Positions 49,885 through 61,695 of a stretch of DNA of 64,000 nucleotides are shown piece after piece. Location: the NCBI GenBank assembly GCA_963808235.1, contig CAWEEQ010000004.1, positions 781,084 to 845,083 on the forward strand. Direction: 5' to 3'. This stretch comes from an uncultured delta proteobacterium (GTDB lineage Bacteria; Desulfobacterota; Binatia; Binatales; Binataceae). Position 1 is the stretch's first letter. Every line of letters starts with the position of its first letter. The notes below the pieces were generated by a model. It had not been told where the DNA came from. It saw nothing but the letters and a program-made list of their open reading frames with translations, and searched no databases. The translations under genes were made by a program, and so were the position numbers.

Positions 49885-50718
49885 ATGAAGCGGCTCAGAC
49901 GCCCAAGAAAGCGAATTTTGGATGCTTCCGCCAGTCCGCCGGTGGAAAAGCCCTTGGAAATTCAGGCCCTTTTGAAGCTCTTTCCGACCCTCGAATCCGA
50001 AAAACTCAAACGGCTGGCCGGCGAGATGTCGTTGGTGCGATTCAAACGAGGCGATCGCATTCGCGTCGACACCCAGTCATCGACGGACGTACTGGTGGTT
50101 TTGAAGGGAGCGATCGCGATCACCTGGCAGCACGACAGCCGCCATCAGGTGCTGGTCACGATGCTCGCGCCGGGAGAAATGTACGCGGTTTCCACGCTGC
50201 TACCCGAGATGGCGCAAGGCCTGAAAGGCTGCGCATTCACCAGCAGCCTGGTAGCGACGATCGATTCGAAGAGGCTGGTGGAGATAGTTCTCGGCGTCGG
50301 GCTGGGAGCGTTCAAATCAGCGATGGAAATGACGGTTGGATGGTCGGCCGAAACGCTCATGCGATACATCAAGATGTTTCACATGGCGCCGCGCGATCGT
50401 CTAGTCATTGCGCTGATCGAGATGGGCGCAAAGTTCGGCGTGCGTGACTCGAGAGGCCTCATTCTGAATTTGCCGATGACTCAGAAGGACCTGGCCAACC
50501 TGCTGGGCGCATCGCGGCAAAAGGTCAACGCATACCTGGGCGAACTGGTGCGCATGGGAGCGGTGATCAATCTGAGCCGGCAGATCGTTCTGGTTCCGGA
50601 CAAGCTATTCGCGTTGGTCGGCGATCCCGATGTCCATTACTACAGCGCGCCGCACAAGCATTCGGTTGCCAAACCGCACGACCTCTCGTCGCATTCAAGA
50701 CGCGAGATGCATCTCTAA
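49885..50718 (+). CDS. Crp/Fnr family transcriptional regulator (cNMP-binding domain + C-terminal HTH, with about 40-aa C-terminal extension)
   Basis: An effector-binding beta-roll (FKRGDRIRVDTQSSTDVLVVLKGAIAI) and the HTH LPMTQKDLANLLGASRQKVNAYLGELVRMGAV. Confidence 0.8.
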   Translation: MKRLRRPRKRILDASASPPVEKPLEIQALLKLFPTLESEKLKRLAGEMSLVRFKRGDRIRVDTQSSTDVLVVLKGAIAITWQHDSRHQVLVTMLAPGEMYAVSTLLPEMAQGLKGCAFTSSLVATIDSKRLVEIVLGVGLGAFKSAMEMTVGWSAETLMRYIKMFHMAPRDRLVIALIEMGAKFGVRDSRGLILNLPMTQKDLANLLGASRQKVNAYLGELVRMGAVINLSRQIVLVPDKLFALVGDPDVHYYSAPHKHSVAKPHDLSSHSRREMHL

Positions 50719-53810: not shown

Positions 53811-55274
53811 GTGCCGGCGTGTGTAGGGCGAGAGCTGGGGAGTAGCTCTGGTATGGCAGATCGGTCGCGATGGCAGATTCCGGTTACAACGGTACCCGCA
53901 ATCGTACTTGTGTTGCTTGGTTACGATGGCTTGAACTCGCTCATTGGGGGAGCGCAGGCGATCGTTCCAACGCTGACTTACGTTTCAACATCGAATGGCG
54001 CGACCTTTTTCGTATCTCTTGATGGCAGAGATTCGGGGGCGGGTAGCTCGGGTTCTCCGTGGCGGACGATTCAAAAAGCGGCCGACACGTTGCAGCCCGG
54101 GCAGACCGCGATAGTAGCGGCCGGCAACTACGGCGAGCGGGTGGAGATTTCGCATTCGGGGACGCGGACGGCTCGGATCACATTACGAGCCGCGAGCGGT
54201 GCGGACGTTCAGCTCCTGGGCTTCGATCTTACCGGAAGCAACTGGGTGCTGAGCGGGTTTGATATCTCCACCCGCAGGAACGGGCGCCAGGGCTATGGGA
54301 TCCACGTGTCCGGTTCGGCCTCGCACGACATTATTCAGAACAACTACATCCATGAACTTTGCCGCGAGGGGATTTTCATGGAGTCGGGAGTCTCGTACAT
54401 TTCGGTTCTCAACAACCGCATCTGGCGGGCCGAGATGGCGGGTGCGCAGGTCGACGGCACCGACGACCTGATCGAAGGCAACGAAGTCTGGGGAACTCAG
54501 CAGGAGCCGGTCCGGGCCGGTGGAATCTATTCGGGATGCGTAACGCCCGACGGCGCCGACGCGGACGCGTTCCGCTTCTTCGGGCAGCATAACGTGTTCC
54601 GATCCAACTACGCGCACGACGTCTACACCGCGTTGCCGACCAACCCCGATCCGCATACCGACTGCTTTCAGACCTGGGGCAGCACCGCGATGAAGGTGGA
54701 CGACATCCTCATCGAGCGAAACGTCTGCCGCTGGCCGGTCGCGTCGACCAAGGTGGACGCGTCGACCGCGATGATCGAGGGAATCGACGGGCCGGTGGGA
54801 ACAGTGACCTTCCAGAACAACCAACTGTCGAATATGCGGCAGGGGATTGTCGTCGGGAATAAGGTCGAGGCGCTGAAGATCTACAACAACACCTGGGACC
54901 ACATCGTGGAAGAAGCGCTGATCTTCAACGACACGAGATCTCCTGCCGACGAGATCATCAACAATATTTTCTATGACGTCGGCGCTGGCGGCGATGCTTA
55001 CGCGTCGGTTCCGAGCGGCAGCCCGCTCTTCCGGAGCAACGTCTTCTACATGCCGGGCGGTGCCAGCGTTGGCACTTATCCGAGCGTGGAGCCCTATACA
55101 AGCGTCGATCCGAGGTTCGCCAACCCCGGCGACTCGACCGGTGCCGGCGCCGATCTGCATCTCCAGGAAAGCTCGCCGCTCAAGCGCTCCGGGGTAACGC
55201 TTCCCCAGGTTACCGATGACTACTACGGAACCAGCCGCGCCGGTGCGGCGTACTCAGTGGGTGCCGCGCGATGA
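53811..55274 (+). CDS. Secreted right-handed parallel beta-helix protein (pectate-lyase-fold; candidate polysaccharide lyase/hydrolase), paralog A
   Basis: A hydrophobic N-terminal segment, then PbH1-like repeats (GNYGERVEI, GFDLTGSNWVLSGFDIS, GIHVSGSASHDIIQNNYIH, NNRIW...). Alternative start at 53853 (MADRSRW). Confidence 0.65.
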   Translation: MPACVGRELGSSSGMADRSRWQIPVTTVPAIVLVLLGYDGLNSLIGGAQAIVPTLTYVSTSNGATFFVSLDGRDSGAGSSGSPWRTIQKAADTLQPGQTAIVAAGNYGERVEISHSGTRTARITLRAASGADVQLLGFDLTGSNWVLSGFDISTRRNGRQGYGIHVSGSASHDIIQNNYIHELCREGIFMESGVSYISVLNNRIWRAEMAGAQVDGTDDLIEGNEVWGTQQEPVRAGGIYSGCVTPDGADADAFRFFGQHNVFRSNYAHDVYTALPTNPDPHTDCFQTWGSTAMKVDDILIERNVCRWPVASTKVDASTAMIEGIDGPVGTVTFQNNQLSNMRQGIVVGNKVEALKIYNNTWDHIVEEALIFNDTRSPADEIINNIFYDVGAGGDAYASVPSGSPLFRSNVFYMPGGASVGTYPSVEPYTSVDPRFANPGDSTGAGADLHLQESSPLKRSGVTLPQVTDDYYGTSRAGAAYSVGAAR

Positions 55275-55507
55275 TTGTCACTATGGGGACACCGTCGCGC
55301 GCAGTCGGCCGTGGACGGGCAGACCGGTTGCGCGATCCCTCATGTGTCAGGGGCGTAGCCTCTCTGCGACAGTTTGTTGCACCTTCCGCAAACAAGGAAC
55401 CAGTTGTCTTAGTGAGTTGTAGCGAATCACTACAACGCGCAACGGCACATTTCGTGCTCCGCAGACTTGTTGGATTCTCGCGTCGCTTTAGGTTGATCGG
55501 GTTCGCA

Positions 55508-55583
55508 TCGGAGCGTTGCTGTCGCTCCGGTGCGGACCAATTCAAAGCTCCAGCCGGAGCGTTGCTGTCGTTCCGGCGCGGAC
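55508..55583. repeat. Two 30-nt direct repeats (tcggagcgttgctgtcgctccggtgcggac / ccggagcgttgctgtcgttccggcgcggac), each containing a 7-bp inverted repeat CGGAGCG-N7-CGCTCCG
   Basis: Direct reading of the sequence. 27/30 identity with 46 nt spacing, in the 500-bp intergenic region before paralog B. Confidence 0.8.
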
Positions 55584-55721
55584 GGAAACAAACGGAGCGC
55601 GCCGGCAAATGCCCCGCGCTCAGGGGAAAAGGAGTGCGACACTGATGTATCGGTAACTTGCGATGGAGTGCTGTCCATCGCAGGTACCGATCCCACATTG
55701 CACCAAAGCGTTTTTAAGTCA

Positions 55722-55755
55722 GGCGCCACGTGTTGCCTTTAGTGATCGTGGCGTC
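55722..55755 (+). promoter_or_regulatory. 5'-leader inverted repeat GGCGCCACG-N16-CGTGGCGTC, 17 nt upstream of the ATG of paralog B
   Basis: A 9-bp stem. The same element in a covarying form sits at 58031..58064 before paralog C. A GGGGGAG Shine-Dalgarno sequence follows. Confidence 0.6.
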
Positions 55756-55772
55756 GGGCTTGGGGGAGAAAA

Positions 55773-57860
55773 ATGGCAACAGAAAAGGCCTTGGGCCTGC
55801 GCAGGCTAATCCTTGTCGCGGCGATCGGATTTCTTCTGATCCTGCTCGGTCACAGCCGGGCATACGCTGCGAGTCCCATCCACATTAACAAACCGGCACC
55901 CGACTCGGTCGTCTCCGACTTGGTGACCACGCTGGTTCGGGTCAAGCCGAAGGTCGCCAAGATAGTTTTCATGCTCGATGGCAACCCGCTGTCGACCACT
56001 ACCTCAACCAGCTTCACCTGGAATTCGGCGACGGTTGCGAACGGGATGCATACCATCGCCGCCAGCGCCTACTCTTCATCCAACCAGTTGCTGAAGACGG
56101 TCACCGAGCAAATCAGAGTTGCGAACAAAAAACCTCCTCCGCCGACTCGTACTCCGACGCCAACCTCCACGCCGACGGCCACCCCGGTGCTTTCGTTCGT
56201 GTCTCCGACCAGCGGGCAGACGCTCAGCGGATCGATAAGCGTCGCGCTGTCATTCTCGAGCCCACCATCGCAAACCAACCCTGGCGCGGTTTGGTGGACC
56301 GAATTGTCCGTCGACGGTGCACCGGTGGTTTCCGGATACAACAATTTGCCCTGGGACACGACCACGGTCGGCAACGGATCGCATACCTTGCGCGTGGATG
56401 GTTACGCGTACAACGGGACAACTTCGATCGGCAATGCGACCATCAACGTGACGGTCAACAACTCGGGCGTAACCGCAACTCCGACGGCTTCATCGACGCC
56501 CACGATCGGCCCGACGCCGACCGTGACCGCTACACACACGGGCACCCCAACCACCGCTCCGACGCCGACTGCGACACGAACGGCGACTCCGACTCTCGGC
56601 GCGACACCGACTGCGACGTCCACCCTGCACGCGACCCCGACTGCGACGTCAACGCCGGGCGGATGCGTCAGCATCACGGCACCGGCTCCCAGCGCGACCG
56701 TCAATGGCATCGTGGCCATCAACACTAACGACACTTGCTCAGGCGCCTGGTTTGAATCGCTCTACGTCGACGGCGCGCATGTTTCCGACTTTCCGGTCGG
56801 ACAGATCATGTTCACGAGCACTAGCTACGCCAACGGGATGCACACCATCCAGGTGACCAGCCAGAGCACCAATCCGGGTTCGGTCCAGCTTGGCAGCGCG
56901 TCCGAAGCGTTGAACGTGCAGGCGGGTTCGGCGACCAAGACAGCCACCGCGACGCCTACCACGAAGCCGAGCGCGACGCCGACGCCGGGAGGGGGCCATT
57001 ACTCAATGATGGGACCCGGAGCGTCTCTGCCGAGCGAAGCGGCTTGCGTCAGCGCGGTGAACGCGTCGCCTATTCCGGAGAACGCGCCGTGGAACCAGGA
57101 CGACGGCACCGGCTTTAACTCGAATCTGCCTCCATCCGGCGGTGTGCCGGCGTACTTCTACGCCAACGCGCCGTGCTGCAACGAATTGCCGCATGCGGAT
57201 TTTGCCAACGTCGACGGAAACTATTCGGGCTCCACAGATGACCTCATCCGAATCACCGCCTGCAAGTGGGGTATCGACGAAGACTACGTGCGCTCGCAGG
57301 CGTGGATCGAATCCGATTGGCATCAGGACTGCTCCGCGGCGCATGGCGGCTCCGACTGTCAGGAAGGCGGCGATATGGACAGCCCGAGCGGCGATCCGTC
57401 AGGCCTGGCGGTCACTTCGATATCGCCGGGAGGCGTATTCAGCGCCTTCAACGGATTTGGAAATCCCGGCGGCCCAACCGATCACTGGGATTCGTGGAGC
57501 ATCGTTCAGACCAAGGTGTACTACGAGTGGATGACGTGGCCGATGATGGAGGAGTCCACGCCTTTCGGGCTCGATTTTCGCTACGCGGAGATGCGCGGTT
57601 GCGTCAACGGCGATCAATATAGCTACTACAATAGCCAGTCATCCGCGCAGGGCACTGACTATCAGAATGCCGTCAATGCCGCCCGCAACAATCCGAACGG
57701 AGCATCGGCAGTCACAGGCTGGACCAACCTTCAGTACCTTTCGTACGGATGCATCGACACCCACTTTTCCGGCGACTGGTTCAACGGCACAGCCGACAGC
57801 TATCTGAACGAGTTCCTGAACAGGTTGGCAACCGCACCGTGGCCGGGCGGTCTGCAGTAG
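55773..57860 (+). CDS. Secreted multi-Ig-like-domain protein with Pro/Thr linkers and a Cys-rich about 290-aa C-terminal domain of unknown function, paralog B
   Basis: Signal peptide LILVAAIGFLLILLGHSRAYAAS, three Ig-like modules of about 90 aa separated by (PT)n and TPTATxT linkers, and a C-terminal domain with 8 Cys including a CC pair (APCCNELPH) and CKWGIDEDYVRSQAWIESDW. Confidence 0.7.
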   Translation: MATEKALGLRRLILVAAIGFLLILLGHSRAYAASPIHINKPAPDSVVSDLVTTLVRVKPKVAKIVFMLDGNPLSTTTSTSFTWNSATVANGMHTIAASAYSSSNQLLKTVTEQIRVANKKPPPPTRTPTPTSTPTATPVLSFVSPTSGQTLSGSISVALSFSSPPSQTNPGAVWWTELSVDGAPVVSGYNNLPWDTTTVGNGSHTLRVDGYAYNGTTSIGNATINVTVNNSGVTATPTASSTPTIGPTPTVTATHTGTPTTAPTPTATRTATPTLGATPTATSTLHATPTATSTPGGCVSITAPAPSATVNGIVAINTNDTCSGAWFESLYVDGAHVSDFPVGQIMFTSTSYANGMHTIQVTSQSTNPGSVQLGSASEALNVQAGSATKTATATPTTKPSATPTPGGGHYSMMGPGASLPSEAACVSAVNASPIPENAPWNQDDGTGFNSNLPPSGGVPAYFYANAPCCNELPHADFANVDGNYSGSTDDLIRITACKWGIDEDYVRSQAWIESDWHQDCSAAHGGSDCQEGGDMDSPSGDPSGLAVTSISPGGVFSAFNGFGNPGGPTDHWDSWSIVQTKVYYEWMTWPMMEESTPFGLDFRYAEMRGCVNGDQYSYYNSQSSAQGTDYQNAVNAARNNPNGASAVTGWTNLQYLSYGCIDTHFSGDWFNGTADSYLNEFLNRLATAPWPGGLQ

Positions 57861-57877
57861 TCGGCGAAAACGAAACA

Positions 57878-57914
57878 GTTGGGGGCGACTGGATACTCAG
57901 TCAGCGCCCCCAAC
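57878..57914 (+). terminator. GC-rich stem-loop (GTTGGGGGCG-N17-CGCCCCCAAC) 18 nt after the stop of paralog B
   Basis: A perfect 10-bp stem. It lacks a downstream U-tract, so it is a candidate intrinsic terminator or RNA-stabilising hairpin. Confidence 0.5.
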
Positions 57915-58030
57915 AAATGTCACTGTGGAGACATTTAGATAGTCAATAACGATAGTCAGAACCAGGCTGGAACGAGGTCCGATAGTAGGCGCTGGCTGTA
58001 GATTGCCGGGGAATTGGGTTTTTTAAGCCA

Positions 58031-58064
58031 GGCACCGCGTGTTGCCTTTAGTGGTCGTGGTGCC
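58031..58064 (+). promoter_or_regulatory. 5'-leader inverted repeat GGCACCGCG-N16-CGTGGTGCC, 18 nt upstream of the ATG of paralog C
   Basis: Homologous to 55722..55755, with three substitutions that all preserve base pairing. Confidence 0.6.
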
Positions 58065-58082
58065 GGGCTTGGGGGAGAAAAA

Positions 58083-60323
58083 ATGGCAACGGAAAAGGCC
58101 TTGGGCCTGCGCGGGCTGCCGCTTGTCGCGACGGTCGGACTGTTTCTTATGCTGCTCGGTCACGGCCAGGCTTACGCGGCGGGTCCCATCCACATTAATG
58201 CGCCGGCCCCGGACGCGGTCGTCTCCGACATGGTGACGACATTGGTTCGGATCAAGCCGCAGGTCGCTCGGGTAGTTTTCCTGCTTGACGGCAACCTGTT
58301 GGCGTCGACTTCGTCCACCAGCTACACGTGGGATTCGGCGACGGTTGCGAACGGTATGCATACCATCGCGGCCAGCGCCTATACTTCATCCAATCAGTTG
58401 CTGCGCACTGTCTCCGAGCGAATCAGGATTGCGAACAAGCATAAACCGACTCCAACCCCCACTCCGACCACCACGCCGACTGTTACTGCCACTGCCACGA
58501 CCAACCCCACACCGACCGCGACTGCCACCTCGACACGGACGAGGACTCCAACTGTCACCGCGACGACGACCGCGAGTGCCACTGCGACACGAACGGCGAC
58601 TGCGACTGGGACACGAACGGCGAGCCCGACCCCGACTGCGACGTCAACGCCGGGCGGATGCGTCAGCATCACGGCACCGGCTCCCAGCGCGACCGTCAAT
58701 GGCATCGTGGCCATCAACACCAACGACACTTGCTCAAGCGCCTGGTTTGAATCGCTCTACGTCGACGGTGCGCATGTTGCCGATTTTCCGGTCGGACAGA
58801 TCATGTTCACGAGTACGAACTACGCCAATGGAATGCATACCATCCAAGTGACCAGCCAGAGCACCAATCCGGGTTCGGTCCAGCTTGGCAGCGCGTCCGA
58901 AGCGTTGAACGTGCAGCCGGGCGCCACGGCCACGCCGACATCAACCGCGACGCCAACGGCGACCTCCACATCGACTTCGTCGGTCCAGCCGACCCCGACG
59001 GCCACGTCGACGCCCAACGGCTCGACGTTCTACGTATCGCCAACCGGTAGCGACTCGGCGTCTGGCAGTTCGGGCTCACCATGGCGCACGATTCAGAAGG
59101 CAGCGGACACGCTGCTGGCGGGACAGACTGCGATCGTATCGGCAGGCAACTACGGCGAGCGCGTCTCGATCTCGCGCTCCGGCACGTCGTCCAGTCCGAT
59201 CACCTTGCAGGTCGCAAGCGGTGCGGATGCCCAACTCCTCGGCTTCGATCTCACAGGCAGCAACTGGGTTCTGGACGGCTTTGACATCTCGACCCAGACC
59301 AATGGCAGCGAAGGGTACGGGATCCACGTAGACGGTTCGGCCTCGTATGACACGATTCAGAACACCTATATCCATGAACTCTGCCACGAGGGCATTTTCA
59401 TGGAGTCAGGGGTCTCGCACATCTCGGTGCTGAACAACCGCATCTGGCGGGCCGAGATGGCAGGTGTGCAGGCCGATGGCGTGTACGATCTGATCGAGGG
59501 CAACGAAGTCTGGGACACTCAGCAGTATGCGATGAATGCGGGTGGAATTTACTCGGTGTGCACGATTGCCGGCGGCGCCGATGCGGACGCGTTCCGCTTC
59601 TTCGGCCAACATAATGAGTTCCGTTCTAACTACGCACACGACATTTACCACGATATGCCAGGCGATCCGCATCCTACCAATCCCAATCCTCACACCGATT
59701 GCTTCCAAACTTGGGGGAACTCTGCAATGACGGTGAGCGATATTCTATTTGATCGCAACCTTTGTCGCTGGCCAGGAACTAATCAATTTCAGCTTGCAAA
59801 TATAAATTCTACAACGCTTGCAAACATTGGGGTTAATGAAGGCGCAGTAACTAACTTAACCTTTCAAAACAACATACTCTCCAATTCAGGACAGGGAATA
59901 GATATTGAAGGTGGCGTTGGTCCAGTAAACGCTTATAACAATACTTTTGTTCATATAGCGCAGGAAGGATTAGTTTGTAATGGCGCTCGTACATCAGCGG
60001 ACCAGATCATGAACAACATTTTCTACGATGTTGGCGATGGTGGTGATTCGTACACTTCAGGCTGTCAGAATTCAACATTCAATAATAATGACTTCTACAT
60101 GCCGGGCGGCGTCAGCGTCGGCACCTATCCGAACGTCGAGCCGTACCTGAGCCTCGATCCGTTGTTCGTCAACTTCGGCGACGCGACCGGCGGCGGCGGG
60201 GATTTCCATCTGCAGTCCGGCTCGCCGCTAAAAGGCGCCGGGACCACGGTCTCGACCGTCACCAATGACTACTACGGCACCAGCCGGGTGGGGGCAGCAT
60301 ACTCAGTCGGCGCCGCTCAATGA
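58083..60323 (+). CDS. Secreted mosaic protein: Ig-like modules (as paralog B) fused to a right-handed beta-helix (as paralog A), paralog C
   Basis: The N-terminal 300 aa are about 85-97% identical to paralog B, including a near-identical segment of about 295 nt. The C-terminal 450 aa are about 75% identical to paralog A. The start was chosen at MATEKALG by homology; the ORF track extends to 58014. Confidence 0.7.
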   Translation: MATEKALGLRGLPLVATVGLFLMLLGHGQAYAAGPIHINAPAPDAVVSDMVTTLVRIKPQVARVVFLLDGNLLASTSSTSYTWDSATVANGMHTIAASAYTSSNQLLRTVSERIRIANKHKPTPTPTPTTTPTVTATATTNPTPTATATSTRTRTPTVTATTTASATATRTATATGTRTASPTPTATSTPGGCVSITAPAPSATVNGIVAINTNDTCSSAWFESLYVDGAHVADFPVGQIMFTSTNYANGMHTIQVTSQSTNPGSVQLGSASEALNVQPGATATPTSTATPTATSTSTSSVQPTPTATSTPNGSTFYVSPTGSDSASGSSGSPWRTIQKAADTLLAGQTAIVSAGNYGERVSISRSGTSSSPITLQVASGADAQLLGFDLTGSNWVLDGFDISTQTNGSEGYGIHVDGSASYDTIQNTYIHELCHEGIFMESGVSHISVLNNRIWRAEMAGVQADGVYDLIEGNEVWDTQQYAMNAGGIYSVCTIAGGADADAFRFFGQHNEFRSNYAHDIYHDMPGDPHPTNPNPHTDCFQTWGNSAMTVSDILFDRNLCRWPGTNQFQLANINSTTLANIGVNEGAVTNLTFQNNILSNSGQGIDIEGGVGPVNAYNNTFVHIAQEGLVCNGARTSADQIMNNIFYDVGDGGDSYTSGCQNSTFNNNDFYMPGGVSVGTYPNVEPYLSLDPLFVNFGDATGGGGDFHLQSGSPLKGAGTTVSTVTNDYYGTSRVGAAYSVGAAQ

Positions 60324-60372
60324 TGGGCGCGGAGGAGATCGAAGATAGTCAATAGCTATAGTCAGAATCAGT

Positions 60373-61695
60373 TCAGAGCGACGTCCGGTAATAGTGAATC
60401 GATTGCCGCAACCCGCCTCCGAGGCGGGTGCGGATGTACCCCAGCATCTCATTCGTCAGCAGGTACTTGGGGCGCAGATAAACGCCGCCATTGTTGAGCG
60501 AGAACAGGATGCGGTGGAATTTCCAGTTGTTGAAATTGCGCAGCAGCCGGAACCGCGCCGATACTCCCAGCGTCTGTATCCCGAAAGGGAACTTGAAGCC
60601 AAACCAAAGCGGCTGAGAATTGATCGCCAGGTCGGGCTCGGTCGAATTGTCTATTTCCTCGAGCGAACCCTCCGCCAACCTGAACCTGACCGTCTTGTCG
60701 AGGTCGGGTATCTGAATAGTCACTGGACGGAGCATCCGTAGCAGGAGCATCGAGTATTTGTCGCGCATCTGCGCGGCAAGACCGTCGTAAGCGGCAACAA
60801 TTTCAGGCATCGATTTGCTCTCGACCGGATCGTACGTGCGCTCATCGACGCTCGGCAGTTGATCGAATCGCGTCAGCGCATCCGACGAATCGTGTTCGGC
60901 GCCAACTTCGTAGATATCCCCCGGATACAGCACCACTGCGCGCTGACCTTGGCGGCTTAAATAATTGGCGGCGTCGCGCGCGGAATTCGCAAAATTATTG
61001 ACGTACTTGTTGTCGAGGCTCGAAAAGTAGATGAAGCTCGCAAACGGGATTGTCGCTTTCGCATCCAGGCCGCGATGCACTGAAGATACATTTTCGAGAA
61101 TCTGCGCAGCTCGCTGCGGCAGAAATTTCTCATGCGGCTCAAAGCCGGCGTAGGCGGCCAGCGAGAACTGATTAAGGAGAACATCGACGCGTCCGATGTC
61201 GTGCAGGATGCCCTTGCATTCGCCGGCGCTGATGCGTGCGTCGTTGGCGTTGAAGATGACTTGTCCTTTACTCAGTACCGCCAGCGCGGAGTCCATTATC
61301 CCGGCGTGATAGCAATATACTTTCGTCGCATCGGGCTTGCTGCTCAGCGATACGATCATCCGATGCGGCAGCCGCTGAAATCGCTCATAGCCAAGCTTGC
61401 GAAACGCCGCGAACATCTTTGTGTAATCGCGATCCTGAAAGAGGATCGTCACCCGCGCTTTGAAGTCAGCCGGAAATGATCCGAGGGTCGGGAAGTGACA
61501 ATGATCGGGATGCTCGTGCGAGATCCAGATGTACTCGACCTTGTCGAGCACCGCCTGGTCGAACTTTGGTTCCGGCAGCAGAGTCCATGAGTCGTTGAAA
61601 ATTTTTCCGAATAGCCAGGGATCCATCAGGATCGACGTGTCGGCGCATTCCGCGACGATGCATGCATGTCCGACAAAGTGAATTTTCATGAGCAC
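60373..61695 (-). CDS. MBL-fold metallo-hydrolase family protein, hypothetical
   Basis: HEHPDH (HxHxDH) motif near the N-terminus. 440 aa. Confidence 0.6.
   Translation of the reverse strand: MLMKIHFVGHACIVAECADTSILMDPWLFGKIFNDSWTLLPEPKFDQAVLDKVEYIWISHEHPDHCHFPTLGSFPADFKARVTILFQDRDYTKMFAAFRKLGYERFQRLPHRMIVSLSSKPDATKVYCYHAGIMDSALAVLSKGQVIFNANDARISAGECKGILHDIGRVDVLLNQFSLAAYAGFEPHEKFLPQRAAQILENVSSVHRGLDAKATIPFASFIYFSSLDNKYVNNFANSARDAANYLSRQGQRAVVLYPGDIYEVGAEHDSSDALTRFDQLPSVDERTYDPVESKSMPEIVAAYDGLAAQMRDKYSMLLLRMLRPVTIQIPDLDKTVRFRLAEGSLEEIDNSTEPDLAINSQPLWFGFKFPFGIQTLGVSARFRLLRNFNNWKFHRILFSLNNGGVYLRPKYLLTNEMLGYIRTRLGGGLRQSIHYYRTSL

Follow-up and report, generated by a model that had tools for sequence, protein, structure and literature searches.

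The leaders of E. coli rpsO, which encodes S15, and of T4 gene 32 are pseudoknotted translational operators. In the leaders of E. coli ompA and B. subtilis aprE, 5'-terminal stem-loops act as stabilisers, and the Shine-Dalgarno (SD) sequence lies outside the stem. In the fourU thermometers of Salmonella agsA, Yersinia lcrF, and SPbeta blyA, a U-run in the leader hairpin pairs with the SD sequence and blocks the ribosome (PMC3185406, PMC10586365). Here we analyse a hairpin that precedes two paralogous genes, B and C, in a stretch of 64,000 nucleotides (nt) from an uncultured delta proteobacterium of the Binataceae (GenBank assembly GCA_963808235.1, contig CAWEEQ010000004.1, positions 781,084 to 845,083 of the forward strand; hereafter the window). 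B and C encode secreted proteins in an exopolysaccharide locus, and a third paralog, A, lies upstream of B. The hairpin includes the SD sequence of the gene that follows it. It represents a real, previously uncatalogued, and lineage-restricted family of the well-known SD-masking kind. Its structure is well supported by sequence comparison, and its function as a translational gate is plausible but unproven.

The original prediction described a 9-bp inverted repeat with a 16-nt spacer before both genes, and the repeat is present as claimed when the sequence is read. The three arm differences that it listed from B to C are also correct: pair 4 changes from G-C to A-T, pair 2 from G.T to G-C, and pair 7 from A-T to G.T. 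The repeat forms the upper part of an RNA hairpin of about 20 bp, as predicted by RNAfold (Table 1). The loop and the segment TTTTTAAGYC are conserved, as had been stated, but the latter is a strand of the stem rather than a flank. TTTTTAAGYC (55711-55720 in B and 58020-58029 in C) pairs with GGCTTGGGGG (55757-55766 and 58066-58075) and extends the stem over the G-run of the SD sequence. In the RNAfold structure, UUUUUAAGYC and GGCUUGGGGG form five U.G pairs and five further pairs that cover this G-run. UUUUU at 55711-55715 is opposite GGGGG at 55762-55766 in B, and the arrangement in C is equivalent. The T/C difference in TTTTTAAGYC (U.G to C-G) is a fourth change between B and C that preserves pairing. 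The spacing of 17-18 nt between the hairpin and the SD sequence has to be corrected, since this is the distance to the ATG (55773 and 58083), and GGGGGAG starts 6 nt past the hairpin. In total, the two leaders differ by six substitutions in 62-63 nt, five of them in stems, all preserving pairing, and one in the loop. The whole element is compact, with a length of about 75 nt. It does not have the layout of an intrinsic terminator or attenuator, as the U-run is 5' of the stem and AGAAAAAUG comes after the hairpin, and a terminator scan made no plus-strand call at the hairpin coordinates.

Two paralogs alone are weak evidence for a selected structure because B and C look like recent paralogs that arose by tandem duplication. 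Homology between them begins abruptly at the T-run. This boundary is probably the left junction of the duplication, coinciding with the base of the hairpin. A 52-nt segment of the B-C spacer (57937-57988) is a copy, with 79% identity, of 60343-60394 downstream of C. The 52-nt element holds GATAGTCA twice, and one copy lies after B and one after C. The copy at 60343-60394 reaches into the 3' end of a convergent gene of the metallo-beta-lactamase fold (Lactamase_B_3). The repeat pair is probably the footprint of the tandem duplication that made B and C. With one double change and three single transitions, the two paralogs are only suggestive of a structure. Since the duplication, the leader has been constrained, as it differs at 6 of 62 positions (10%) compared with 16 of 56 four-fold degenerate sites (29%) in the first 119 codons.

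Metagenomic relatives yielded ten further distinct leaders that keep the hairpin in front of the same signal-peptide N-terminus. With B and C, this gives twelve distinct leaders: B, C, L001 (identical to L002 and L003), L004, L005, L008, L009, L012B (identical to L013B), L012C, L013C, L017, and L018, where the numbers denote loci. The five loci L001-L005 were found in a metagenome scan; the contigs carrying L008, L009, L012, L013, L017, and L018 were reached through the paralog-A homologs that they encode. All organism-named homologs belong to "Candidatus Binataceae", and, judged from these names, the related carriers are probably uncultured Binataceae. The N-terminal module, composed of the signal peptide and Big_7, is rare, with one truncated match (P0001) among 5.8 billion proteins. 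A protein-pattern scan of species-representative genomes found no relative in that collection, from which the lineage is absent. Two matches to the DNA motif in the same genomes, in a delta-proteobacterial metagenome-assembled genome (MAG) and a Helicobacter MAG, lie inside coding regions and were rejected as chance.

A covariance model (Infernal-type) built from six leaders retrieves all the other leaders at E values of 1e-7 or better. When the 64-kb window is scanned with a second model and filters off, only B and C are detected (88.7 and 87.7 bits), and the next match scores 11 bits. The scan also agrees with the earlier statement that the region upstream of paralog A lacks the element. A dispersed repeat or mobile element was rejected, since the window has two copies only and elsewhere the element is found only before homologous genes. 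Searching Rfam 15 with the whole window at the gathering threshold returned two tRNAs only, and the region 55200-55850 at E <= 10 gave only noise of 13-20 bits, against thresholds of 37-108.

The hairpin is found before all genes with a MAT(R/E)..AL.LRRL-type N-terminus except L019, and A-type genes (MADRSRWQ...) do not have it. Since L019 lacks the hairpin despite the same N-terminus, the cassette can lose the element. The MATRM..LRRL gene of L019 (690-800) has another leader, in which a small hairpin, UUCGU...ACGAA, precedes GGGGGG, and a GCAACG repeat surrounds the ATG. A diverged copy of the element at L004:197-269 (E = 0.008) precedes a third N-terminal type, and its core stem CGCCACG/CGUGGCG is identical. 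L012 (12045) and L013 (12041) have identical A proteins and B-type leaders, but their C-type starts and leaders clearly differ. The arms of the C-type leader are CCACCGC...GCGGTG in L012 and GTCATCACG...CGTGATGCC in L013. This contrast suggests strain-level recombination at the cassette of leader and signal peptide.

Pairing is maintained across the twelve leaders. In the model-fitted alignment of the distinct sequences, 90.4% of the cells are standard pairs, compared with 37-66% when the 3' partners are slid. The original prediction named orthologous leaders that break pairing as the observation that would speak against it, and this high fraction of paired cells is what was found. Changes on both sides occur in seven pairs and 13 cells. 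Among 500 shuffles, the pair count was reached in nine and the cell count in none, and the slid controls gave 0-2 pairs changed on both sides. Pair 4 is A-U in six leaders, G.U in four, G-C in one, and unpaired in one, and pair 7 is A-U in nine, G-C in two, and G.U in one. Pair 5 is C-G in 11 and U-A in one, and pair 9 is G-C in eight, A-U in one, and unpaired in three. Lower-stem pairs alternate too, for example with C-G in five leaders, U-A in three, and U.G in two. The U-run is also kept, as alignment columns 5-9 form U.G pairs in 8-12 of the 12 leaders. A 7-bp core, in which four pairs covary, is recovered independently by RNAalifold. The majority fraction is 0.50 in the upstream flank and 0.76-1.00 in the U-run, the loop, and the SD sequence. 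The ortholog pairing and the compensatory changes support the earlier proposal that the secondary structure is under selection and, in the simplest case, belongs to a cis-regulatory RNA leader.

The minimum free energy (MFE) calculated by RNAfold is -29.1 kcal/mol for B and -33.1 kcal/mol for C (z = -3.0 relative to dinucleotide-shuffled sequences). On the minus strand of B, the fold is no more stable than those of its shuffles (z = -0.4). The full fold and the fold with the upper stem only have energies of -27.5 and -17.7 kcal/mol in B, -31.5 and -19.0 in C, and -30.7 and -18.0 in L017. The difference, about -10 to -12.5 kcal/mol, is the contribution of the lower stem in these three leaders. 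Their SD sequences are strongly masked, with computed unpaired probabilities of 0.1-0.2.

The 5' half of the loop, UGUUGC, is invariant in all twelve leaders and thereby more conserved than either stem. UGUUGCC (55731-55737) is exactly complementary to GGCAACA (55775-55781), which consists of the G of the AUG and codons 2-3. This loop/start-codon helix is 94% paired over the twelve leaders, 11 of which have duplex energies between -9 and -17 kcal/mol. In several orthologs, the helix grows to 8-9 bp with -15 to -17 kcal/mol. Compared with shuffled loops, the significance in individual leaders is modest, with p values of 0.002-0.25 over seven leaders and 0.02-0.05 for B, C, and L001. The helix is the consensus helix that RNAalifold finds in an unfitted MAFFT alignment of seven B-type untranslated regions (UTRs), and it is contained in the MFE fold of L009. 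Three of its pairs vary on one side in a wobble-compatible manner, with ACG in C, AUA in L017, and GCA in L018. In L012C, codon 3 is deleted, the loop has diverged, and the pairing is lost. Both GCA and ACA are minor codons, with shares of 15% (Ala) and 10% (Thr), respectively, as counted in seven genes of the window.

Together, these features are best read, with moderate confidence, as a cis-acting RNA stem-loop in the 5' leader of B, C, and related genes that would gate translation initiation. Most likely, it would act as a translational gate for secreted PL9-like and immunoglobulin (Ig)-domain proteins of an exopolysaccharide locus. The lower stem would hold the SD sequence and keep the ribosome-binding site (RBS) closed. 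With a lower stem of -10 to -12.5 kcal/mol, translation would be low unless the stem is opened. The G+C-rich upper stem would nucleate and lock the fold. The invariant loop would provide a second contact site, whose likeliest partner is the start-codon region of its own mRNA. This contact may take the form of a pseudoknot or of an alternative helix in competition with the lower stem. Alternatively, the partner of the loop could be a trans-acting protein or a small RNA. The hairpin would thus be a translational operator rather than a passive structure. In the case of B, a conserved promoter-like element of the sigma-54 type about 330 nt upstream suggests that the hairpin is the final part of a long structured 5' UTR.

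Several observations weigh against parts of this reading. The covariation counts were obtained from a model-fitted alignment of 12 related sequences. None of the seven loop/start pairs changes on both sides, so that this helix shows conservation and no covariation. Paralogs that lack the hairpin (the A-type genes and L019) likewise retain GCA as codon 2, and part of the codon-2 conservation therefore has another cause. The linker from the full 20-bp stem to GGCAACA is 8 nt. Because of this short linker, the loop/start helix would compete with the lower stem and not add to it, and the 20-bp hairpin and the loop/start helix are probably sterically incompatible as a single pseudoknot. Furthermore, masking of the SD sequence is merely partial in several orthologs, with unpaired probabilities of 0.4-0.6. 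The MFE folds of L008 and L009 in a longer context do not contain the canonical hairpin, and these two leaders carry A.C mismatches in the upper stem.

A more elaborate version of the gate, which we consider quite unlikely, is that the element is the expression platform of a new two-state switch. A long stem that hides the SD sequence would alternate with the helix between the loop UGUUGCC and the start region, and the state would be selected by a ligand, a protein, or a small RNA. For B, the switch would end a conserved multi-hairpin 5' UTR of about 300 nt that starts at a sigma-54-type promoter. By a rough estimate, the two states would be roughly iso-energetic. This two-state picture is a model.

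The translational gate has a serious rival in a 5' stem-loop that stabilises the mRNA or protects it from processing, where masking of the SD sequence would be secondary. The hairpin would then be located at or near the mature 5' end, either as the primary end or after endonucleolytic cleavage at the conserved CUGA/UUUU junction, and would shield the transcripts of abundant secreted proteins from 5'-dependent decay. This rival has to be taken seriously because the conserved region begins at the base of the hairpin, as is seen both in the B/C homology and in C-type leaders, and because, in most orthologs, the U-run directly follows CUGA. The high stability of the stem is also in line with this role. 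C-type leaders are located just 20-60 nt past a strong terminator-like hairpin of the preceding gene, and there is therefore little room for a long 5' UTR. However, covariation reaches the lower stem containing the SD sequence, which a pure stabiliser would not need, and the invariant loop would be left without explanation. Given the conserved sigma-54-like element about 330 nt before B, the hairpin of this gene could be 5'-terminal only in a processed transcript. We rate the stabiliser as unlikely. A fourU-like RNA thermometer, in which the wobble pairs between the U-run and the G-run of the SD sequence melt on warming to turn translation on, was rejected on computed melting and seems very unlikely to us. 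Although a run of 5-6 U paired with SD purines is the defining fourU arrangement (PMC10586365, PMC3185406), and five consecutive U.G pairs are located at the outer end of the helix, the SD sequence barely opens between 10 and 37 °C. Its computed mean unpaired probability in B is 0.11, 0.12, 0.18, and 0.41 at 10, 25, 37, and 50 °C; in C it is 0.20 to 0.24 over 10-37 °C and about 0.4 at 50 °C; L017 is similar to B. A lower stem of -10 to -12.5 kcal/mol also speaks against a thermometer, which requires neither the invariant loop nor the G+C-rich upper stem. Nor does the gene context fit, as the products are secreted polysaccharide-active proteins of a soil organism and have no heat-shock or virulence function.

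The element could also have no function of its own and be a fortuitous structure, inherited with the cassette of leader and signal peptide through duplication and gene conversion. B and C are products of a tandem duplication with a sharp homology boundary, all known copies are from one narrow lineage with 12 distinct sequences, and related sequences can beat shuffle controls without any structure. However, between B and C the leader is three times more conserved than the four-fold sites, different orthologs show several independent compensatory changes on both sides of a pair, and the U-run, loop, and SD sequence are conserved while the upstream flank is not. We give this explanation no better a chance than the thermometer. 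Least probable of all is the DNA alternative of the original prediction, a dyad operator or protein site for a dimeric regulator, such as the Crp/Fnr type encoded about 5 kb upstream. The 9-bp inverted repeat, the gene for a Crp-like regulator at 49885-50718, and a second inverted repeat formed by the loop and the start region (TGTTGCC ... GGCAACA) are compatible with it. However, the arms drift with their complementarity kept, and G.T is tolerated where A.C is not. The stems contain 67 G.U cells compared with three A.C cells, or 12 compared with three when the U-run is left out, an excess that favours a plus-strand RNA over a DNA operator. The lower stem pairs a T-run with a G-run and is no DNA palindrome, the minus strand does not fold, and the 16-bp spacing of the arms with a conserved asymmetric loop is atypical of operators. 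The operator is not supported by these observations, and the translational gate in the RNA leader is retained as the preferred reading.

Table 1. Features of the two hairpin copies and the genes that follow them (positions in the window)
Feature	Position	Strand	Basis or remark
Copy B lower stem, 5' strand UUUUUAAGUC	55711..55720	+	RNAfold MFE structures; U-run opposite SD G-run
Copy B upper stem, 5' arm GGCGCCACG	55722..55730	+	Sequence; covariation at A7 alignment pairs 21-52, 22-51, 24-49, 26-47
Copy B loop TGTTGCCTTTAGTGAT / UGUUGCCUUUAGUGAU	55731..55746	+	Sequence, ortholog alignment
Copy B upper stem, 3' arm CGTGGCGTC / CGUGGCGUC	55747..55755	+	Sequence, fold, alignment
Copy B lower stem, 3' strand GGCUUGGGGG (55757-55766)	55757..55768	+	Overlaps SD GGGGGAG 55762-55768
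Copy B AUG GCA ACA (start codon and codons 2-3)	55773..55781	+	GGCAACA (55775-55781) is the candidate loop partner
Copy C U-run and lower stem, 5' strand UUUUUUAAGCC	58019..58029	+	Sequence, fold
Copy C upper stem, 5' arm GGCACCGCG	58031..58039	+	Sequence, fold, alignment
Copy C loop TGTTGCCTTTAGTGGT / UGUUGCCUUUAGUGGU	58040..58055	+	Sequence, fold
Copy C upper stem, 3' arm CGTGGTGCC / CGUGGUGCC	58056..58064	+	Sequence, fold
Copy C lower stem, 3' strand GGCUUGGGGG	58066..58077	+	Overlaps SD GGGGGAG 58071-58077
Copy C AUG GCA ACG	58083..58091	+	A-to-G change keeps loop pairing as U.G
Gene B	55773..57860	+	Signal peptide, Big_7 Ig-like domains, Thr/Pro-rich linkers, C-terminal domain of ~290 aa
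Gene C	58083..60323	+	B-like signal peptide and Big_7 N-terminus, then DUF1565/right-handed beta-helix (Pel9A-like) as in paralog A

The locus is a Wzx/Wzy-type polysaccharide cluster with a sugar transferase, a flippase, a GT4 glycosyltransferase, and Wzy_C. It also contains a DegT aminotransferase, a methyltransferase, the Crp-like regulator, and uppS. The cluster genes are followed by the secreted beta-helix (Pel9A/PL9-like) paralogs and two Lactamase_B_3 genes, and this arrangement is syntenic in relatives. In B, a Cys-rich C-terminal domain (residues ~405-695, 56980-57860) replaces the beta-helix domain of A and C, and no sequence match to it was found in Pfam, NCBIfam, or PDB. In paralog A (53820-53856), an SD-like GGGGAG is exposed in the loop of a small hairpin, AGAGCU...AGCUCU, whereas the SD sequences of B and C are masked. 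A homolog of paralog A in L010 (3554-9527) is found beside a phage integrase, a Prim-Pol primase, a small terminase subunit, and polysaccharide-export genes. This copy may be prophage-borne and depolymerase-like.

Between A and B, seven loci share a conserved non-coding spacer of about 300-440 nt. An invariant block within it, (C/G)GGCAC-N6-TGCTC (55443-55459 in the window), has the -24/-12 spacing of sigma-54 promoters (GG-N10-GC). This block is present in all seven orthologous A-B spacers, 254-329 nt before the B-type start codon, and may be a promoter of B, which would give this gene a 5' UTR of about 300 nt. If it promotes B, the hairpin is transcribed as the last module of a structured 5' UTR of that length. 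C has the hairpin only, and the hairpin is therefore an autonomous module. No sigma-70-like promoter was found near the hairpin. A sigma-54-like match before C (TGGCTG-N4-TTGC, 57993-58006) was rejected because its spacing is off by one base. Upstream of the sigma-54-like element, two conserved 5-7-5 dyads at 55365-55381 (TGCGACAGTTTGTTGCA) and 55418-55434 (TGTAGCGAATCACTACA) may be bound by an activator or by the Crp-type regulator that the locus encodes.

Two further hairpins in the A-B spacer are conserved with a little covariation. A 38-nt block is tandemly duplicated (55509-55546 and 55555-55592) with a period of 46 nt, each consisting of a GGAGCG-N7-CGCTCC hairpin and then GGYGCGGAC. The block is single in orthologs, where RNAalifold predicts a conserved extended hairpin with little covariation. 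The segment 55629-55656 holds an SD-like AAGGAG and, 10 nt further on, a mini-open reading frame (ORF), ATG TAT CGG TAA. L005, L008, L009, and L012 have a mini-ORF of 2-3 codons (MH*, MHR*, MHG*) at this position, which L001 and L004 lack. A 124-codon ORF at 55271-55645, which overlaps the stop of gene A (ATGA), was rejected as a gene, since its translation is Arg-rich and not protein-like. Its similarity to the L004 counterpart covers 68 residues only and reflects conserved nucleotide blocks. An upstream ORF ending at or inside the hairpin, for coupling or as an arrest peptide, was also rejected because there is no in-frame conservation among orthologs. Neither the stops near the U-run nor the GTG-initiated frames through the loop are conserved in frame in the ortholog comparison. 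On the other side of B, a strong 10-bp G+C hairpin, GTTGGGGGCG...CGCCCCCAAC (57878-57914), is located 18 nt past the stop without a U-tract. Orthologs have a different strong hairpin with a U-rich tract at this place, 20-60 nt before the C-type leader.

To our knowledge, the Binatia, an uncultured soil lineage, have essentially no experimentally characterised gene regulation. If the translational gate is real, secreted polysaccharide-active proteins of an exopolysaccharide locus would have a concrete point of post-transcriptional control that can be tested. The cassette of leader and signal peptide is re-used on proteins with different mature domains. If the two-state switch were true, it would link the secretion of exopolysaccharide-modifying enzymes in Binataceae to some signal.

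The element can be compared with several known regulatory RNAs. Its hairpin, A-rich linker, and downstream segment complementary to the loop follow the topology of small pseudoknot riboswitches, as in preQ1-I and SAM-II. However, it differs from the riboswitches and ROSE elements of Rfam in that it has no match in Rfam 15 and no conserved internal loop or bulge resembling a ligand pocket, and the gene context of B and C gives no hint of a metabolite. As in fourU thermometers, a U-run of at least four consecutive U in the 5' strand is paired with SD purines. In B and C, however, this U-run wobble-pairs with the G-run inside a hairpin of ~20 bp and ~-30 kcal/mol, the element has an invariant loop, and the genes are for secreted polysaccharide-active proteins. 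Opening is predicted in silico to be negligible below 50 °C, which is not the thermolability of a thermometer. The element shares with ompA and aprE a stable hairpin near a strong RBS in the leader of genes for abundant exported proteins, but its stem includes the SD sequence, and a promoter-like element is located ~330 nt before B. As in rpsO and T4 gene 32, an equilibrium between hairpin and pseudoknot could hold the RBS, given that the loop is complementary to the start-codon region. It differs from rpsO-type operators because the pseudoknot helix has no covariation support and the linker would be 8 nt with the lower stem formed. Autogenous control is unlikely because the downstream genes encode secreted enzymes and not RNA-binding proteins. 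The element opens no new class of mechanism; in kind, it is an ordinary SD-masking leader hairpin.

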